A program made the position numbers and the translations under genes. Positions 27,831 through 35,824 of a DNA stretch of 64,000 bases are shown here, piece after piece. Location of the stretch: NCBI RefSeq assembly GCF_002854065.1, contig NZ_CP024147.1. The stretch is one strand, 5' to 3'. The notes under the pieces were generated by a model. The model saw nothing but the letters and a program-made list of their open reading frames with translations, did no database searches and was not told where the DNA came from. Positions within the stretch are counted from its first letter, which is position 1. Each line of letters opens with the position of its first letter. The stretch is from Escherichia coli (lineage in GTDB: Bacteria; Pseudomonadota; Gammaproteobacteria; Enterobacterales; Enterobacteriaceae).

Positions 27831-29369
27831 ATGCAACAGCAAAAACCGCTGGAAGGCGCGCAACTGGTCATTATGACGATTGCGCTGTCACTAGCGACAT
27901 TCATGCAGGTGCTGGACTCCACCATTGCTAACGTGGCGATCCCCACTATCGCCGGGAATCTGGGCTCATCGCTCAGCCAGGGAACGTGGGTAATCACTTC
28001 TTTCGGGGTGGCGAATGCCATCTCGATCCCGCTTACCGGCTGGCTGGCAAAGCGCGTCGGGGAAGTGAAACTGTTCCTCTGGTCCACCATCGCCTTTGCT
28101 ATTGCGTCGTGGGCGTGTGGTGTCTCCAGCAGCCTAAATATGCTGATCTTCTTCCGCGTGATTCAGGGGATTGTCGCCGGGCCGTTGATCCCGCTTTCGC
28201 AAAGTCTATTGCTGAATAACTACCCGCCAGCCAAACGCTCAATCGCGCTGGCGTTGTGGTCGATGACGGTGATTGTCGCGCCAATTTGCGGCCCGATCCT
28301 CGGCGGCTATATCAGTGATAATTATCACTGGGGCTGGATATTCTTCATCAACGTGCCGATTGGCGTGGCGGTGGTGTTGATGACATTGCAGACGCTGCGC
28401 GGACGCGAAACCCGCACCGAACGGCGGCGGATTGATGCCGTGGGGCTGGCACTGCTGGTTATTGGTATCGGCAGCCTGCAGATTATGCTCGACCGCGGTA
28501 AAGAGCTGGACTGGTTTTCATCACAGGAAATTATCATCCTTACCGTGGTGGCGGTGGTGGCTATCTGCTTCCTGATTGTCTGGGAGCTGACCGACGATAA
28601 CCCGATAGTCGATCTGTCGTTGTTTAAGTCGCGCAACTTCACCATCGGCTGCTTGTGTATCAGCCTCGCGTATATGCTCTACTTCGGCGCTATTGTTCTG
28701 CTGCCGCAGTTGTTGCAGGAGGTCTACGGTTACACGGCAACGTGGGCAGGTCTGGCCTCTGCGCCGGTAGGGATTATTCCGGTGATCCTGTCGCCGATTA
28801 TCGGCCGCTTCGCGCATAAACTGGATATGCGGCGGCTGGTAACCTTCAGCTTTATTATGTATGCCGTCTGCTTCTACTGGCGTGCCTATACCTTTGAACC
28901 GGGCATGGATTTTGGCGCGTCGGCCTGGCCGCAGTTTATCCAGGGCTTCGCTGTGGCCTGCTTCTTTATGCCGCTGACCACCATTACGCTGTCTGGTTTG
29001 CCACCGGAACGACTGGCGGCGGCATCGAGTCTCTCCAACTTTACGCGTACGCTGGCGGGGTCTATCGGCACGTCGATAACCACAACCATGTGGACCAACC
29101 GCGAGTCGATGCACCATGCGCAGTTAACCGAGTCGGTAAACCCGTTCAACCCGAATGCCCAGGCGATGTACAGTCAACTGGAAGGGCTTGGGATGACGCA
29201 ACAGCAGGCCTCCGGCTGGATTGCCCAGCAGATCACTAACCAGGGGCTGATTATTTCCGCCAATGAGATCTTCTGGATGTCAGCCGGGATATTCCTCGTC
29301 CTGCTGGGGCTGGTGTGGTTTGCTAAACCGCCATTTGGCGCAGGTGGCGGCGGAGGCGGTGCGCACTAA
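27831..29369 (+). CDS. emrB: Multidrug efflux MFS transporter EmrB
   Basis: Sequence MQQQKPLEGAQLVIMTIALSLATFMQV...; the ORF track start at 27822 is an in-frame GTG. Confidence 0.95.
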   Translation: MQQQKPLEGAQLVIMTIALSLATFMQVLDSTIANVAIPTIAGNLGSSLSQGTWVITSFGVANAISIPLTGWLAKRVGEVKLFLWSTIAFAIASWACGVSSSLNMLIFFRVIQGIVAGPLIPLSQSLLLNNYPPAKRSIALALWSMTVIVAPICGPILGGYISDNYHWGWIFFINVPIGVAVVLMTLQTLRGRETRTERRRIDAVGLALLVIGIGSLQIMLDRGKELDWFSSQEIIILTVVAVVAICFLIVWELTDDNPIVDLSLFKSRNFTIGCLCISLAYMLYFGAIVLLPQLLQEVYGYTATWAGLASAPVGIIPVILSPIIGRFAHKLDMRRLVTFSFIMYAVCFYWRAYTFEPGMDFGASAWPQFIQGFAVACFFMPLTTITLSGLPPERLAAASSLSNFTRTLAGSIGTSITTTMWTNRESMHHAQLTESVNPFNPNAQAMYSQLEGLGMTQQQASGWIAQQITNQGLIISANEIFWMSAGIFLVLLGLVWFAKPPFGAGGGGGGAH

Positions 29370-29376
29370 GGTTGTC

Positions 29377-29401
29377 AAAGGGAGCTTCGGCTCCCTTTTT
29401 A
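29377..29401 (+). terminator. Rho-independent terminator after emrB
   Basis: aaagggagc-ttcg-gctccc followed by TTTTT. Confidence 0.8.
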
Positions 29402-29626
29402 TTTGCTCATTGTGCAAACGGTTGTTTTATCCACTCATTCGGTGTATCTTTTCGCCGCCCCAAACTCTTCCATTCACTATTAACCGGTTCTGAGCATTCG
29501 CTCAGGTTGTTAATTCTCTTTTTCCTTCGCCCTCGCTTTCGCGGGTGATACTCACATTTTCCGTTTAACCCCATAACTCGCACCCTCGCGGGCGTACGTT
29601 TATTACACACAAAATAATGGATTATT

Positions 29627-30334
29627 ATGAATACCCAACTTAAATACGGGAGAACCTGGCATTATCCTTTCTCCCCCGGCACCACCAGCGATGACCGCAT
29701 TAACGCCGATTACTGGCAGGATTTACAGGCCATCGCGCAACTGGTGCATACAGAAAAACTCGACGGCGAAAATAACTGCCTTAACCGCTACGGTGTGTTT
29801 GCCCGTTCCCATGCCGCGCCTACGCAGTCGGCATGGACCTATAAAATTCGCCAGCGTTGGCAACTGCTGAAAAACGATCTCGGCGACCTGGAGTTGTTTG
29901 GCGAAAATCTCTACGCCGTTCATTCCATTGAATACCGCGCGCTGGAACAGGACTTTTACCTGTTTGCCGTTCGCTGCCAGGATATGTGGCTGAGCTGGGA
30001 AGAGGTGCAGTTTTACGCCGCCCTGTTTGATTTCCCCTGCGTTCCCGAAATCTCCGGCCCGCAGCCGGGGAATGATGAAAAAAGCTGGCAACGTGATTTT
30101 CTGGCACTGACCAATGCGCGCGGCGCGTTCGATCCCTGGGATACACAAACCGGGCAACCCTGTACTCTGGAAGGCATTGTCAGCCGGAATCGTGATGCGT
30201 TTTCCGTCGCTGACTTTTCGCATAACGTCTTCAAGTATGTGCGCAAAAATCATGTCAAAACCACTGTGCACTGGAAACGACACTGGCAACGGGCGCGGAT
30301 GGCCCATGAGTTCGCTTATGGAGAACAGTCATGA
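29627..30334 (+). CDS. ATP-dependent RNA ligase-like nucleotidyltransferase (Rnl2-type catalytic domain only)
   Basis: 235-aa ORF with covalent nucleotidyltransferase motifs in canonical order and spacing: motif I EKLDGEN, motif [12 protein letters not shown], motif IV LEGIVSR, motif V FKYVRK. Confidence 0.75.
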
Positions 30335-31443
30335 TTTGGCAGCTTACCGACGATAAACGCTGGTCGACACTACGCCAGCGTTTCAGTTGGGTTGAGGAGA
30401 TGCATCACACGCCACAAGACCCGGAGCATCATGGTGAAGGTGACGTCGGCGTGCATACCGAAATGGTGCTTAACGCCCTTGTTACTCAGCCAGAATTCCA
30501 GCAACTCCCCGCTCAACAGCAGGAAGTTTTATGGGCGGCGGCGTTATTACATGATGTTGAAAAGCGCAGCACTACCGTGCAGGAAAACGGACGTATTCAG
30601 TCGCCGGGCCATGCTCGTCGGGGCGAACTGACGGCCCGGCTGATTTTGTGGCGCGATATCCCAACGCCGTTCGTGCTGCGCGAGCAAATCGTTGCGCTGG
30701 TGCGTCTGCATGGGTTACCGCTATGGTTACTGGAACGTCCGGAACCGGAGCGTTTGTTGCTCACGGCTGCAATGCGCATCGACACGCGTCTGCTCACTTT
30801 GCTTGCTCGTGCCGATCTGCTTGGTCGCCAAAGCCCGGATCAGCAATCAATGCTGGAACGCATCGATCTGTTCGAGCTGTTTTGCCAGGAGCAACAGTGT
30901 TGGGGAAAAGTGCGCTCGTTCGTGTCTGATTCCGCACGCTGGCATTACCTGACCCATGAGCAAAGTTCTCCTGATTTTGTTCCCTGGGAGGCTGAACCTT
31001 TTGAGGGCATTTTGCTGTGTGGCTTACCGGGTATGGGCAAAGATCGCTATATCAATGAACAGTGCCAGGGAATGGACGTTATCAGCCTTGATGATATGCG
31101 GCGGCGAATCAATGCCAATCCGGACGACAAAACCGCCACCGGGCGTATTGTGCAACAGGCAAAAGAAGAGGCACGCGTTTTTTTACGCCAGAAAAAGCCG
31201 TTCATCTGGAATGCAACGAACTTTACCCGCCAGCTTCGTAGCCAGCTCATCAGCCTGTTTACGGCTTACGGCGCACGAGTAAAAATAGTTTATCTTGAAG
31301 TGCCATGGGCGCAATGGAAGCAGCAAAATGCCAGACGCGAGTATGCAGTTCCTGAAGCGGTCGTGATGCGGATGGCCTCAAGGCTGGAAGTTCCTCAACC
31401 TGATGAAGCACATAGCGTGGAGTATCGGGTGATTGAAAGGTAA
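30331..31443 (+). CDS. Bifunctional HD-domain phosphoesterase / 5'-OH polynucleotide kinase (HD-Pnk architecture)
   Basis: 370-aa ORF; N-terminal HD metal-ligand pattern ([18 protein letters not shown], further His and Asp); C-terminal P-loop GLPGMGKD followed by [17 protein letters not shown] and [16 protein letters not shown], resembling the T4 Pnk kinase domain; start overlaps upstream stop (ATGA). Confidence 0.75.
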
Positions 31444-31448
31444 AAAAA

Positions 31449-31474
31449 CCGGGCGGTGGTGTCACCTGCCCGGC
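31449..31474. terminator. Bidirectional hairpin terminator between HD-Pnk gene and convergent luxS
   Basis: ccgggc-loop-gcccgg stem flanked by A-run upstream and T-rich run downstream. Confidence 0.6.
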
Positions 31475-31491
31475 TTCTTTTGTTCCACTGA

Positions 31492-32007
31492 CTAAATGTG
31501 CAGTTCCTGCAACTTCTCTTTCGGCAGCGCCAGTTCTTCGTTGCTGTTGATGCGCACGTCACGTTCCAGAATGCTACGCGCAATATCCTGCGCTTCCTGC
31601 AACGAGTGCATCTGGTAAGTGCCACACTGGTAGACGTTCAGTTCCGGGATCTGATTCTGATCCTGCACTTTCAGCACGTCTTCCATTGCCGCTTTCCAGG
31701 CATCAGCAACACGCTGCTCATCTGGCGTACCAATCAGACTCATATAAAAACCGGTGCGGCAGCCCATTGGCGAGATATCGATAATCTCTACACCATTACC
31801 GTTAAGATGGTTACGCATAAAACCAGCAAACAGGTGCTCCAGGGTATGGATCCCTCTTTCTGGCATCACTTCTTTGTTCGGCACGCAGAAGCGCAGATCG
31901 AACACGGTGATTGCGTCGCCATGCGGGGTGTTCATTGTTTTCGCCACCCGAACTGCAGGCGCTTCCATCCGGGTATGATCGACTGTGAAGCTATCTAACA
32001 ACGGCAT
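31492..32007 (-). CDS. luxS: S-ribosylhomocysteine lyase (autoinducer-2 synthase)
   Basis: 171-aa [34 protein letters not shown]... Confidence 0.97.
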
Positions 32008-32041
32008 TTAGCCACCTCCGGTAATTTTTTTAAAAATTTTC

Positions 32042-32070
32042 TGAACTCTTTCTTCCCAGGCGAGTCTGAG
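32042..32070 (+). promoter_or_regulatory. Sigma-E type promoter of micA
   Basis: -35-like tgaactc and -10-like tctga with ~16-nt spacer ending a few nt before the MicA 5' end. Confidence 0.6.
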
Positions 32071-32075
32071 TATAT

Positions 32076-32148
32076 GAAAGACGCGCATTTGTTATCATCA
32101 TCCCTGAATTCAGAGATGAAATTTTGGCCACTCACGAGTGGCCTTTTT
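32076..32148 (+). ncRNA. micA: MicA (SraD) small regulatory RNA
   Basis: Sequence gaaagacgcgcatttgttatcatcatccctgaattcagagatgaaattttggccactcacgagtggccttttt recognised as MicA, including the terminator hairpin and U-tail. Confidence 0.9.
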
Positions 32149-32156
32149 CTTTTCTG

Positions 32157-33740
<1,584 letters not shown>

Positions 33741-34777: not shown

Positions 34778-34924
34778 GGTCTTCTCGCAAGTCGAAAAAT
34801 ATGACGCTACTTTAGCGTAATTGCTTGATTTTGTCGCTGATGGCGAAGGAGAAGAAAATTCAGGAAATGGATAAAGTAGTTATTTAGAAATGAGATATTT
34901 TTGAAGGAAATTTTTTGGAGAAGA

Positions 34925-35057
34925 TGGTGCATCCGGGAGGATGACTCACTGGCGTTCGCCCTTCGGGCCGTTGCTAAAGCAACGTTATCCTTCCTGGTGC
35001 CTGCGGTTAATTCCGCTACCTCTTCGATATCTTCATTGCTGAAGATTTCGGAGAATA
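34925..35057 (-). repeat. Spacer element A beginning with a 17-nt tRNA-Arg 3'-end fragment (copy 1 of 2)
   Basis: tggtgcatccgggagga duplicates the tRNA-Arg 3' end, followed by ~115 bp containing palindrome cgttgctaaagcaacg; ~85% identical to element B. Confidence 0.7.
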
Positions 35058-35134
35058 TGGTGCATCCGGGAGGATTCGAACCTCCGACCGCTCGGTTCGT
35101 AGCCGAGTACTCTATCCAGCTGAGCTACGGATGC
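35058..35134 (-). tRNA. argQ: tRNA-Arg (anticodon ACG)
   Basis: Reverse complement gives GCATCCGTAGCTCAGCTGGATAGAGTACTCGGCTACGAACCGAGCGGTCGGAGGTTCGAATCCTCCCGGATGCACCA; gene name assigned by position in the array. Confidence 0.95.
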
Positions 35135-35236
35135 ATCGGGAAAATTTATTTTACTGCTGATATTGATATCGCTACTAAAGCCATATCAAATAAGAAAATC
35201 CATCTTAACCATCATCACTGATGATTACGGAGAATA

Positions 35237-35313
35237 TGGTGCATCCGGGAGGATTCGAACCTCCGACCGCTCGGTTCGTAGCCGAGTACTCTATCCAGCT
35301 GAGCTACGGATGC
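35237..35313 (-). tRNA. argZ: tRNA-Arg (anticodon ACG)
   Basis: Identical 77-nt tRNA-Arg copy. Confidence 0.95.
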
Positions 35314-35375
35314 ATCGGGAAATTTATTTTACTGCTGATATTGATACCGCTACTAAAGCCATATCAAGTAAGAGA

Positions 35376-35452
35376 TGGTGCATCCGGGAGGATTCGAACC
35401 TCCGACCGCTCGGTTCGTAGCCGAGTACTCTATCCAGCTGAGCTACGGATGC
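35376..35452 (-). tRNA. argY: tRNA-Arg (anticodon ACG)
   Basis: Identical 77-nt tRNA-Arg copy. Confidence 0.95.
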
Positions 35453-35516
35453 ATCGGGAAACTTACTTTACTGCAGATTTTTTGATACCGCTACTAAAGC
35501 CGTATCAAGTAAGAGA

Positions 35517-35651
35517 TGGTGCATCCGGGAGGATTACTCGCCTTGCGGCTCGCCCTTCGGGCCGTTGCTAAAGCAACGTTATCCTCCCTGGTGCCTGCGG
35601 TTAGTACCGCCACCTCTTCCATACCTTCATCGCTGAAGGTTACGGAGAATA
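35517..35651 (-). repeat. Spacer element B beginning with a tRNA-Arg 3'-end fragment (copy 2 of 2)
   Basis: tggtgcatccgggaggatt then a diverged copy of element A with the same internal palindromes. Confidence 0.7.
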
Positions 35652-35728
35652 TGGTGCATCCGGGAGGATTCGAACCTCCGACCGCTCGGTTCGTAGCCGA
35701 GTACTCTATCCAGCTGAGCTACGGATGC
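35652..35728 (-). tRNA. argV: tRNA-Arg (anticodon ACG)
   Basis: Identical 77-nt tRNA-Arg copy. Confidence 0.95.
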
Positions 35729-35731
35729 AAA

Positions 35732-35824
35732 TGGCGGTGAGGCGGGGATTCGAACCCCGGATGCAGCTTTTGACCGCATACTCCCTTAGCAGGGGAGCGC
35801 CTTCAGCCTCTCGGCCACCTCACC
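35732..35824 (-). tRNA. serV: tRNA-Ser (anticodon GCU), long variable arm
   Basis: Reverse complement gives GGTGAGGTGGCCGAGAGGCTGAAGGCGCTCCCCTGCTAAGGGAGTATGCGGTCAAAAGCTGCATCCGGGGTTCGAATCCCCGCCTCACCGCCA. Confidence 0.95.

Follow-up and report, generated by a model that had tools for sequence, protein, structure and literature searches.

A minimal RNA ligase-like protein encoded with an HD-Pnk partner between emrB and luxS in Escherichia coli

We analyzed a window of 64,000 nucleotides from Escherichia coli (contig NZ_CP024147.1 of assembly GCF_002854065.1), in which the genes proX, ygaZ, ygaH, emrR, emrA, and emrB are followed by a gene for a small ligase-like protein and a gene for an HD-Pnk-type protein. 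Beyond the HD-Pnk gene, on the other strand, lie luxS, gshA, yqaA, yqaB, and a tRNA-Arg/Ser cluster. The two-gene cassette and its flanking elements are laid out as follows.

29377 to 29398, plus strand: intrinsic terminator hairpin of emrB, a terminator-like site AAAGGGAGCTTCGGCTCCCTTT followed by a T run
29422 to 29450, plus strand: tentative sigma-70-type promoter (TTGTTT, 17 nt, TATCTT) in a conserved block
29488 to 29507, plus strand: palindrome or hairpin TCTGAGCA-TTC-GCTCAGG in the leader of about 170 nt, flagged as terminator-like
29579 to 29595: GC-rich hairpin CGCACCCTCGCGGGCG in the region upstream of the ligase gene
29627 to 30334, plus strand: ligase coding sequence with an ATG start; 235 amino acids, a stand-alone nucleotidyltransferase domain
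30331 to 31443, plus strand: HD-Pnk-type coding sequence; 370 amino acids, with an N-terminal all-helical, probable HD phosphoesterase domain and a C-terminal P-loop polynucleotide 5'-kinase domain
31449 to 31473, no strand assigned: bidirectional terminator hairpin, with an A run on one side and a T run on the other, between HD-Pnk (plus strand) and luxS (minus strand)

The cassette is a variable feature of the species. It is present in 1000 of 5426 complete E. coli genomes (about 18%), with at least 80% coverage in 998 of them, in every case on the chromosome, and its median copy number is one. A query spanning the left junction found 993 genomes with the cassette and about 4400 where homology ends at the emrB stop codon. 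Carriers include the pandemic ST131 strain EC958, and two complete genomes are 100% identical to the window over 29400-31500. K-12 lacks the cassette; homology of the window to K-12-type strains ends at 29370, directly after the emrB stop codon, and 2122 bp (29370-31491) stand in place of a 63-bp emrB-luxS spacer that has its own bidirectional terminator. Within the replacement, an emrB terminator comes first, followed by 228 bp of upstream region, the gene pair, and a bidirectional terminator that is new to the site. We found no flanking repeats or mobile-element scar at the cassette and no compositional anomaly within it, the GC content being 0.50-0.57, like that of the flanks. The cassette adjoins emrB in twelve Enterobacteriaceae loci, which suggests that it settled here long ago and has since disappeared from most E. 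coli lineages, and not that it was inserted recently.

The emrB terminator hairpin, which is kept in the Enterobacteriaceae loci, parts the cassette from the emrRAB operon. The 228-bp region that follows it (29400-29626) is conserved across the Enterobacteriaceae genera that have the cassette at emrB and is absent before the cassette in Serratia, Xenorhabdus, and Bacteroidota. Its role could be that of an operator or of a regulatory leader RNA. Within it, the block at 29422-29450 is common to the Escherichia, Klebsiella, Kosakonia, and Phytobacter loci and is tentatively the cassette promoter, although its hexamers are weak (3/6 and 4/6 matches to the consensus) and were missed by a consensus scan. 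The palindrome at 29488-29507 may act as an operator or as an RNA stem-loop: RNAalifold gives it 7 pairs, 4 of which show changes on both sides in Superficieibacter. When 29000-32400 was searched against Rfam, MicA alone matched, and no family matched in the cassette leader. The MicA sRNA (RF00078, 83.9 bits) lies at 32076-32147 on the plus strand between luxS and gshA, as in K-12. At the other end of the cassette, a terminator scan listed a site at 31455-31470 within the HD-Pnk/luxS terminator. Farther downstream, repeated ORF translations at about 34900-35780 are artefacts of tandem tRNA-Arg (four copies) and tRNA-Ser genes, which are annotated in an identical genome.

That the ligase ORF is a genuine gene, strongly conserved and far beyond chance, is confirmed. 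A search of 5.8 billion proteins returned 2157 homologues at E ≤ 1e-3, essentially all of them 230-240 amino acids long, with identities of 84-87% to other Enterobacteriaceae and 61-65% to Bacteroidota, and a profile search of 1.84 billion cluster representatives returned 1689 clusters (50% identity level), of which 209 scored below 1e-30. The gene is under purifying selection, with a sense-frame dN/dS of 0.04-0.11 (0.04-0.07 within Escherichia). An antisense ORF at 29723-30307 (194 amino acids), to which the earlier note on this DNA had drawn attention, does exist, but it does not hold up as a gene: its frame is open in 24 of 84 related loci, versus 83 for the sense ORF, and it is therefore a shadow of the conserved sense gene. 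The ligase family itself is already annotated, PGAP naming the product "RNA ligase family protein" (WP_001095979.1). Residues 38-205 match the Pfam model RNA_ligase (PF09414) from position 2 to position 171 of its 171 (E = 4.8e-28), and all homologues among the matches listed carry this domain; no NCBIfam model matched. The Pfam search found no domain beyond PF09414, and the structural model shows none, in agreement with the earlier description of a protein devoid of added domains.

The sequence motifs of the ligase are given below, with percentages that refer to 105 full-length representatives of 50%-identity clusters.

29642 to 29698, plus strand: family-specific N-terminal motif, residues 6-24, beginning K-Y-G-R-T
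29753 to 29773, plus strand: motif I, EKLDGEN, residues 43-49 (E43 94%, K44 100%, D46 100%, G47 99%, N49 98%)
29756 to 29758, plus strand: codon of K44, the predicted AMP-accepting lysine
Residue R60: motif Ia (99%)
29894 to 29914, plus strand: motif III, LFGENLY, residues 90-96, with G92 and E93 (E93 99%)
After motif III: family-specific H99-S-I-x-Y103 (H99 and Y103 100%)
Residue F113: motif IIIa (96%)
30167 to 30187, plus strand: motif IV, LEGIVSR, residues 181-187 (E182, G183, and V185 100%; R187 96%)
30230 to 30247, plus strand: motif V, FKYVRK, residues 202-207 (K203 100%, V205 98%, R206 99%)
After motif V: family-specific C-terminal tail with H209, T212, and W216 (H209 98%)

Motifs I, III, IV, and V had been read from the sequence before, in this order, and had been called intact; both statements stand, and the catalytic residues are conserved among the 105 representatives. 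Motifs Ia, III, IIIa, IV, and V occur in canonical order and spacing, with residues all at least 91% conserved and located on the expected strands of the model. The earlier note was silent on two variants and on the conserved family segments at both ends. In motif IV, Arg187 takes the place of the Lys found in most ligases, and the usual K-x-K of motif V is replaced by K-x-V-R. The N-terminal motif, in which Y7, H12, S16, D22, and D23 are each found in at least 92% of the representatives, is near-invariant in a 26-sequence alignment and lies outside the Pfam match.

Structure prediction, which had been proposed as a check, was carried out with AlphaFold2 on the 26-sequence alignment. The model (mean pLDDT 85, pTM 0.84) has the nucleotidyltransferase fold of ATP-dependent RNA ligases, with motif I on the strand E39-43 plus the next turn. 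In a Foldseek comparison with the PDB, the best 33 matches are all RNA ligase or ligase-like chains at 14-20% identity, including NgrRnl, T4 Rnl2, archaeal Rnl3, fungal Trl1-LIG, T4 Rnl1, and REL1, together with an Aquifex chain that its depositors labeled a putative DNA ligase. Searches of PDB sequences with the ligase and with the 26-sequence family profile found no ligase structure; the matches that they did return, to hemocyanin, a designed WD-repeat protein, and poliovirus VP2, were repeat-driven and were rejected as spurious because their per-domain E-values were not significant. Aligning the family with T4 Rnl2 (sequence verified against 2hvq) by hhalign gave a probability of 0.2 at an Neff of 1.8, and in a global pairwise alignment motifs I, IIIa, and IV fell into register but III and V did not. 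The correspondence of motifs with Rnl2 therefore rests on order, spacing, and structural match.

The KxDG motif I, the motif order, and the fold place the protein in the covalent nucleotidyltransferase superfamily. With just 42 residues ahead of motif I and 28 beyond motif V, the protein has no space for an accessory domain. Rnl1, Rnl2, Rnl3, Rnl5, and Rnl6 are each defined by such a domain, and membership of these five clades is thereby excluded. In the case of Rnl2, the C-terminal helical domain, or a trans equivalent, that serves nick recognition and 5'-adenylylation is absent, and the ligase aligns only to the isolated N-terminal domain of T4 Rnl2 (residues 1-249, PDB 1s68); identity to this domain and to kinetoplastid REL1 is 14-16%, and the E. 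coli protein differs from both in its missing C-terminal helical domain, its K-x-V-R in place of K-x-K, and its N- and C-terminal signature segments. Rnl5 proteins (Naegleria NgrRnl, Deinococcus DraRnl) possess an N-terminal accessory domain that is absent here, and about 175 of the 340 NgrRnl residues align with the 235-residue ligase. The clade-specific C-terminal domains of Rnl1, Rnl3, and Rnl6 (for Rnl3 also N-terminal and dimerization domains) are likewise lacking. Rnl4, a portion of Pnkp that acts together with Hen1, is ruled out because the association with Hen1 and a metallophosphoesterase-type Pnkp is not found here, even though the bacterial Pnkp-Hen1 and Pnkp1-Rnl-Hen1 systems resemble the cassette in encoding kinase, phosphatase, and ligase together. 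The ligase module of these systems is described as inactive in the absence of its partner protein (PMC4411300). The ligase is thus outside all Rnl1-6 architectures.

Several relatives of the ligase have other architectures. In three proteins (P0122, P0130, P0135), an HNH-endonuclease-like N-terminal domain (CxxC ... HH ...) is fused to the ligase domain, and the 342-position phage profile phrog_24030 ("RNA ligase") matches the E. coli ligase only through its C-terminal 200 positions. Phage relatives occur in 27 records, full length and at 28-45% identity, mostly in jumbo phages larger than 200 kb. A comparison of jumbo phages mentions HNH-ligase fusions, puts stand-alone and HNH-fused ligases of such kind in an "Rnl2 family," and interprets them as repairing RNase damage (PMC7824862). 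Seven giant proteins of 650-2357 amino acids, probably eukaryotic (P0161, P0165, P0168, P0177, P0184, P0208, P0214), join this ligase domain to a P-loop Pnk-like kinase and to another, more divergent ligase-like domain (FPRTxHL ... EEKVDGANLG); phosphatase-like regions occur in some of these proteins, and the N-terminal P-x-T-x-H ... DD motif is common to the two ligase domains. Finally, Chryseolinea lacunae has a second, shorter PF09414 gene (212 amino acids, locus L002, 12136-12774, minus strand) 3.4 kb downstream of its ligase-HD-Pnk pair and on the opposite strand.

The stop codon of the ligase gene overlaps the start codon of the HD-Pnk gene (ATGA at 30331-30334). PGAP calls the HD-Pnk product "ATP-binding protein" or "AAA family ATPase." Its C-terminal half matches Pfam AAA_33 (E = 2.2e-31) and the kinase region of NCBIfam bacter_Pnkp (8.5e-8); phmmer matches it to C. 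thermocellum Pnk and to T4 Pnk, on which its predicted fold superposes in Foldseek with TM scores of 0.72 and 0.71, respectively, and it also superposes on mammalian PNKP and on Mucorales RNA 5'-kinases. The P-loop L-P-G-x-G-K is invariant. The Walker A segment at residues 232-238 reads L-P-G-x-G-K-D, conserved in at least 90% of 84 orthologues, with Asp replacing the usual kinase Ser/Thr and Asn in one Mucilaginibacter sequence. The N-terminal half gives weak HD profile matches (Pfam HD E = 0.075, HDIG 0.0034, HD region of CCA enzymes 7.7e-5); its dyad H74-D75 and other His/Asp residues are invariant, and it is confidently all-helical in the model. Neither protein matched a PADLOC defense family at E ≤ 0.01, and a reading of the pair as a known anti-phage defense system was dropped on this result.

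The pairing of the two genes extends across phyla. Scanning GTDB r220, with one genome per species, we found 329 species with a close relative of the ligase and surveyed taxonomy and loci in the best 80 of them. These 80 are Enterobacterales (Escherichia, Klebsiella spallanzanii, Kosakonia, Phytobacter, Superficieibacter, Serratia, Xenorhabdus, Providencia, Proteus, Budvicia, Pragia, and others) and Bacteroidota (Chitinophaga, Chryseolinea, Ohtaekwangia, Mucilaginibacter, Bacteroides, Prevotella, Dysgonomonas, and others). The synteny is obligate: a full-length HD-Pnk homologue (49-96% identity) lies downstream of the ligase gene on the same strand in all 84 loci examined, starting 0-90 nt from the ligase stop codon with two exceptions. 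In these two, the gap is about 800 nt (Dysgonomonas, L076) and about 240 nt (Prevotella, L068), and something may have been inserted between the genes. Three apparent single-chain fusions of ligase and HD-Pnk (P0181, P0220, P0260) were discarded as short, truncated chimeras. Clustering the flanking ORFs of the 84 loci revealed no third conserved gene beyond close relatives, and the neighborhoods in Chryseolinea, a JGI metagenome contig, and Xenorhabdus consist of unrelated housekeeping genes; the functional unit is therefore exactly two genes. The earlier proposal that the ligase probably needs ends healed beforehand by the downstream HD-Pnk gains support from this synteny and from the overlapping stop and start codons.

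The closest described system is that of Runella slithyformis, in which a ligase-like gene and an HD-Pnk gene have the same arrangement (Munir et al. 2018, PMC6097658). The Runella ligase-like protein forms a ligase-AMP adduct, but no 3'-OH/5'-PO4 substrate on which it was tried, DNA or RNA, was sealed (PMC6097658). The Runella partner has an N-terminal HD and a C-terminal Pnk domain, the architecture predicted for the E. coli partner, and the ligase family has many members in Bacteroidota, among them Cytophagales, to which Runella belongs. The Runella cluster differs in having two extra upstream genes, for Tpt1 and for an MTase-HIT fusion, and the host here is E. coli. By gene arrangement, we would assign the E. 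coli ligase to this HD-Pnk-linked, stand-alone clade; orthology is inferred from the arrangement, the 80 surveyed species having no Runella among them. A Tpt1/KptA homologue is absent from the window and lies near the cassette in only 1 of the 84 loci, so Tpt1 is outside the core system. The single case (Bacteroidetes MAG OH_PBB_261, L032, 9545-10051, minus strand), 44% identical to what we take to be the E. coli KptA sequence, echoes the four-gene Runella cluster. According to work attributed to Munir and Shuman in 2017, HD-Pnk reportedly acts as a kinase on 5'-OH ends and, with Ni, Cu, or Co, takes off 2',3'-cyclic, 3'-, and 2'-phosphates; its homologues are said to span 11 phyla and often to share an operon with a putative ligase. 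A literature search found no later characterization of the Runella-type ligase and none of the E. coli genes.

Based on these observations, we propose that the E. coli protein is a functional ATP-dependent polynucleotide ligase, most likely an RNA ligase, that consists of a bare adenylyltransferase domain and is co-transcribed and translationally coupled with HD-Pnk to form a heal-and-seal pair; we give this reading a probability of about 0.7. Ribotoxins and anticodon nucleases typically leave breaks with a 2',3'-cyclic phosphate (or 3'-phosphate) and a 5'-OH. The HD domain would strip the phosphate from the 3' side of such a break and the Pnk domain would phosphorylate the 5'-OH, leaving 3'-OH and 5'-phosphate ends. 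Lys44 would then react with ATP to form ligase-AMP, the AMP would pass to the 5'-phosphate, and attack by the 3'-OH would seal the break. Self-adenylylation of the ligase and end healing by HD-Pnk are carried over to the E. coli pair from the Runella literature, and RNA as the substrate, like a role in repairing toxin-inflicted RNA damage, is our inference. Since the ligase lacks the substrate-binding domain of the characterized Rnl1-6 enzymes, its 5'-adenylylation and sealing steps probably require either physical partnership with HD-Pnk or a certain folded RNA substrate. T4 Rnl2(1-249) alone reportedly adenylylates and seals AppRNA but does not complete nick sealing. The bare domain resembles this fragment and the Runella result agrees, which points to a second step that would need HD-Pnk or a specific RNA. 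An AlphaFold2 run on a ligase-(GGGGS)6-HD-Pnk fusion, with a shallow paired alignment of 17 genomes and no PAE output, gave a pTM of 0.50 with lower confidence at the ligase termini and no support for a fixed complex.

This heal-and-seal reading faces the objection that strand joining has been reported for no member of the clade, the Runella protein having sealed no substrate on which it was tried. Moreover, the chemistry could differ, given that motif V is without its second lysine and motif IV carries Arg in place of Lys. An alternative is an adenylyltransferase that joins nothing and transfers AMP to a 5'- or 3'-phosphate end, as a cap-like mark or in a cyclization, or to some other acceptor. 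The sole activity reported for such an arrangement is indeed self-adenylylation without ligation (PMC6097658), and the atypical motifs IV and V and the absent substrate-clamping domain lean in the same direction. Yet strict coupling to a maker of 3'-OH/5'-PO4 ends would otherwise be hard to explain, and motifs III, IIIa, and IV, which act in the later steps of other ligases, are at least 96% conserved; we regard a non-joining enzyme as quite improbable.

A ligase acting on DNA appears unlikely as well. In such a scheme, HD-Pnk would clean the 3'-phosphate/5'-OH nicks left by oxidative or nuclease damage, and the ligase would seal the DNA. The best sequence and structure matches, however, are all RNA ligases (PF09414, NgrRnl, Rnl2, Rnl3, REL1). 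ATP-dependent DNA ligases generally have an OB domain, and the ligase has none; the DNA substrates tried with the Runella protein were left unsealed (PMC6097658). The cassette could also be suspected of being an inactive or decaying relic kept in E. coli by linkage alone, as it is missing from about 82% of the complete genomes, including K-12. This suspicion is essentially refuted by the low dN/dS within Escherichia (0.04-0.07), by the presence of at least 80% of the cassette in 998 of the 1000 matching genomes, and by the intact catalytic residues and the upstream region conserved across genera.

Beyond the heal-and-seal reading, we speculate that ligase and HD-Pnk form an obligate two-protein machine representing a seventh, mechanistically distinct type of ATP-dependent RNA ligase. 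Its core would be inert on ordinary ends and would seal only with HD-Pnk, on a specific folded RNA (a cleaved tRNA anticodon loop, or rRNA), or at unusual ends such as a 2'-phosphate. The pair might then give carrier lineages such as ST131, but not K-12, a strain-variable immunity against toxins that act as tRNases or rRNases, namely colicins, contact-dependent inhibition toxins, and phage-triggered anticodon nucleases. We hold this larger proposal to be doubtful.

E. coli is usually credited with one RNA-sealing system, RtcB. The RtcB-RtcA operon resembles the cassette as an RNA repair operon for 2',3'-cyclic-phosphate/5'-OH breaks, but RtcB is GTP-dependent, has an unrelated fold, and joins 3'-P to 5'-OH without healing; the rtc operon is controlled by sigma-54 and RtcR, and there is no sign of such control at the cassette. 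About one in five complete E. coli genomes thus carries a second, ATP-dependent candidate sealing system. New here is an E. coli member of the already annotated Runella-type ligase clade, and little of it will surprise a specialist in RNA repair; the E. coli copy offers a tractable route to the question left by the Runella work. At 235 amino acids, the protein is among the smallest ligase-like enzymes and bears on what a ligase core does without a substrate-clamping domain. E. coli is a genetically tractable host whose natural carrier and noncarrier strains are set apart by a clean replacement of 2.1 kb, and the E. coli pair thereby makes it testable what such a minimal ligase joins and whether it needs HD-Pnk.
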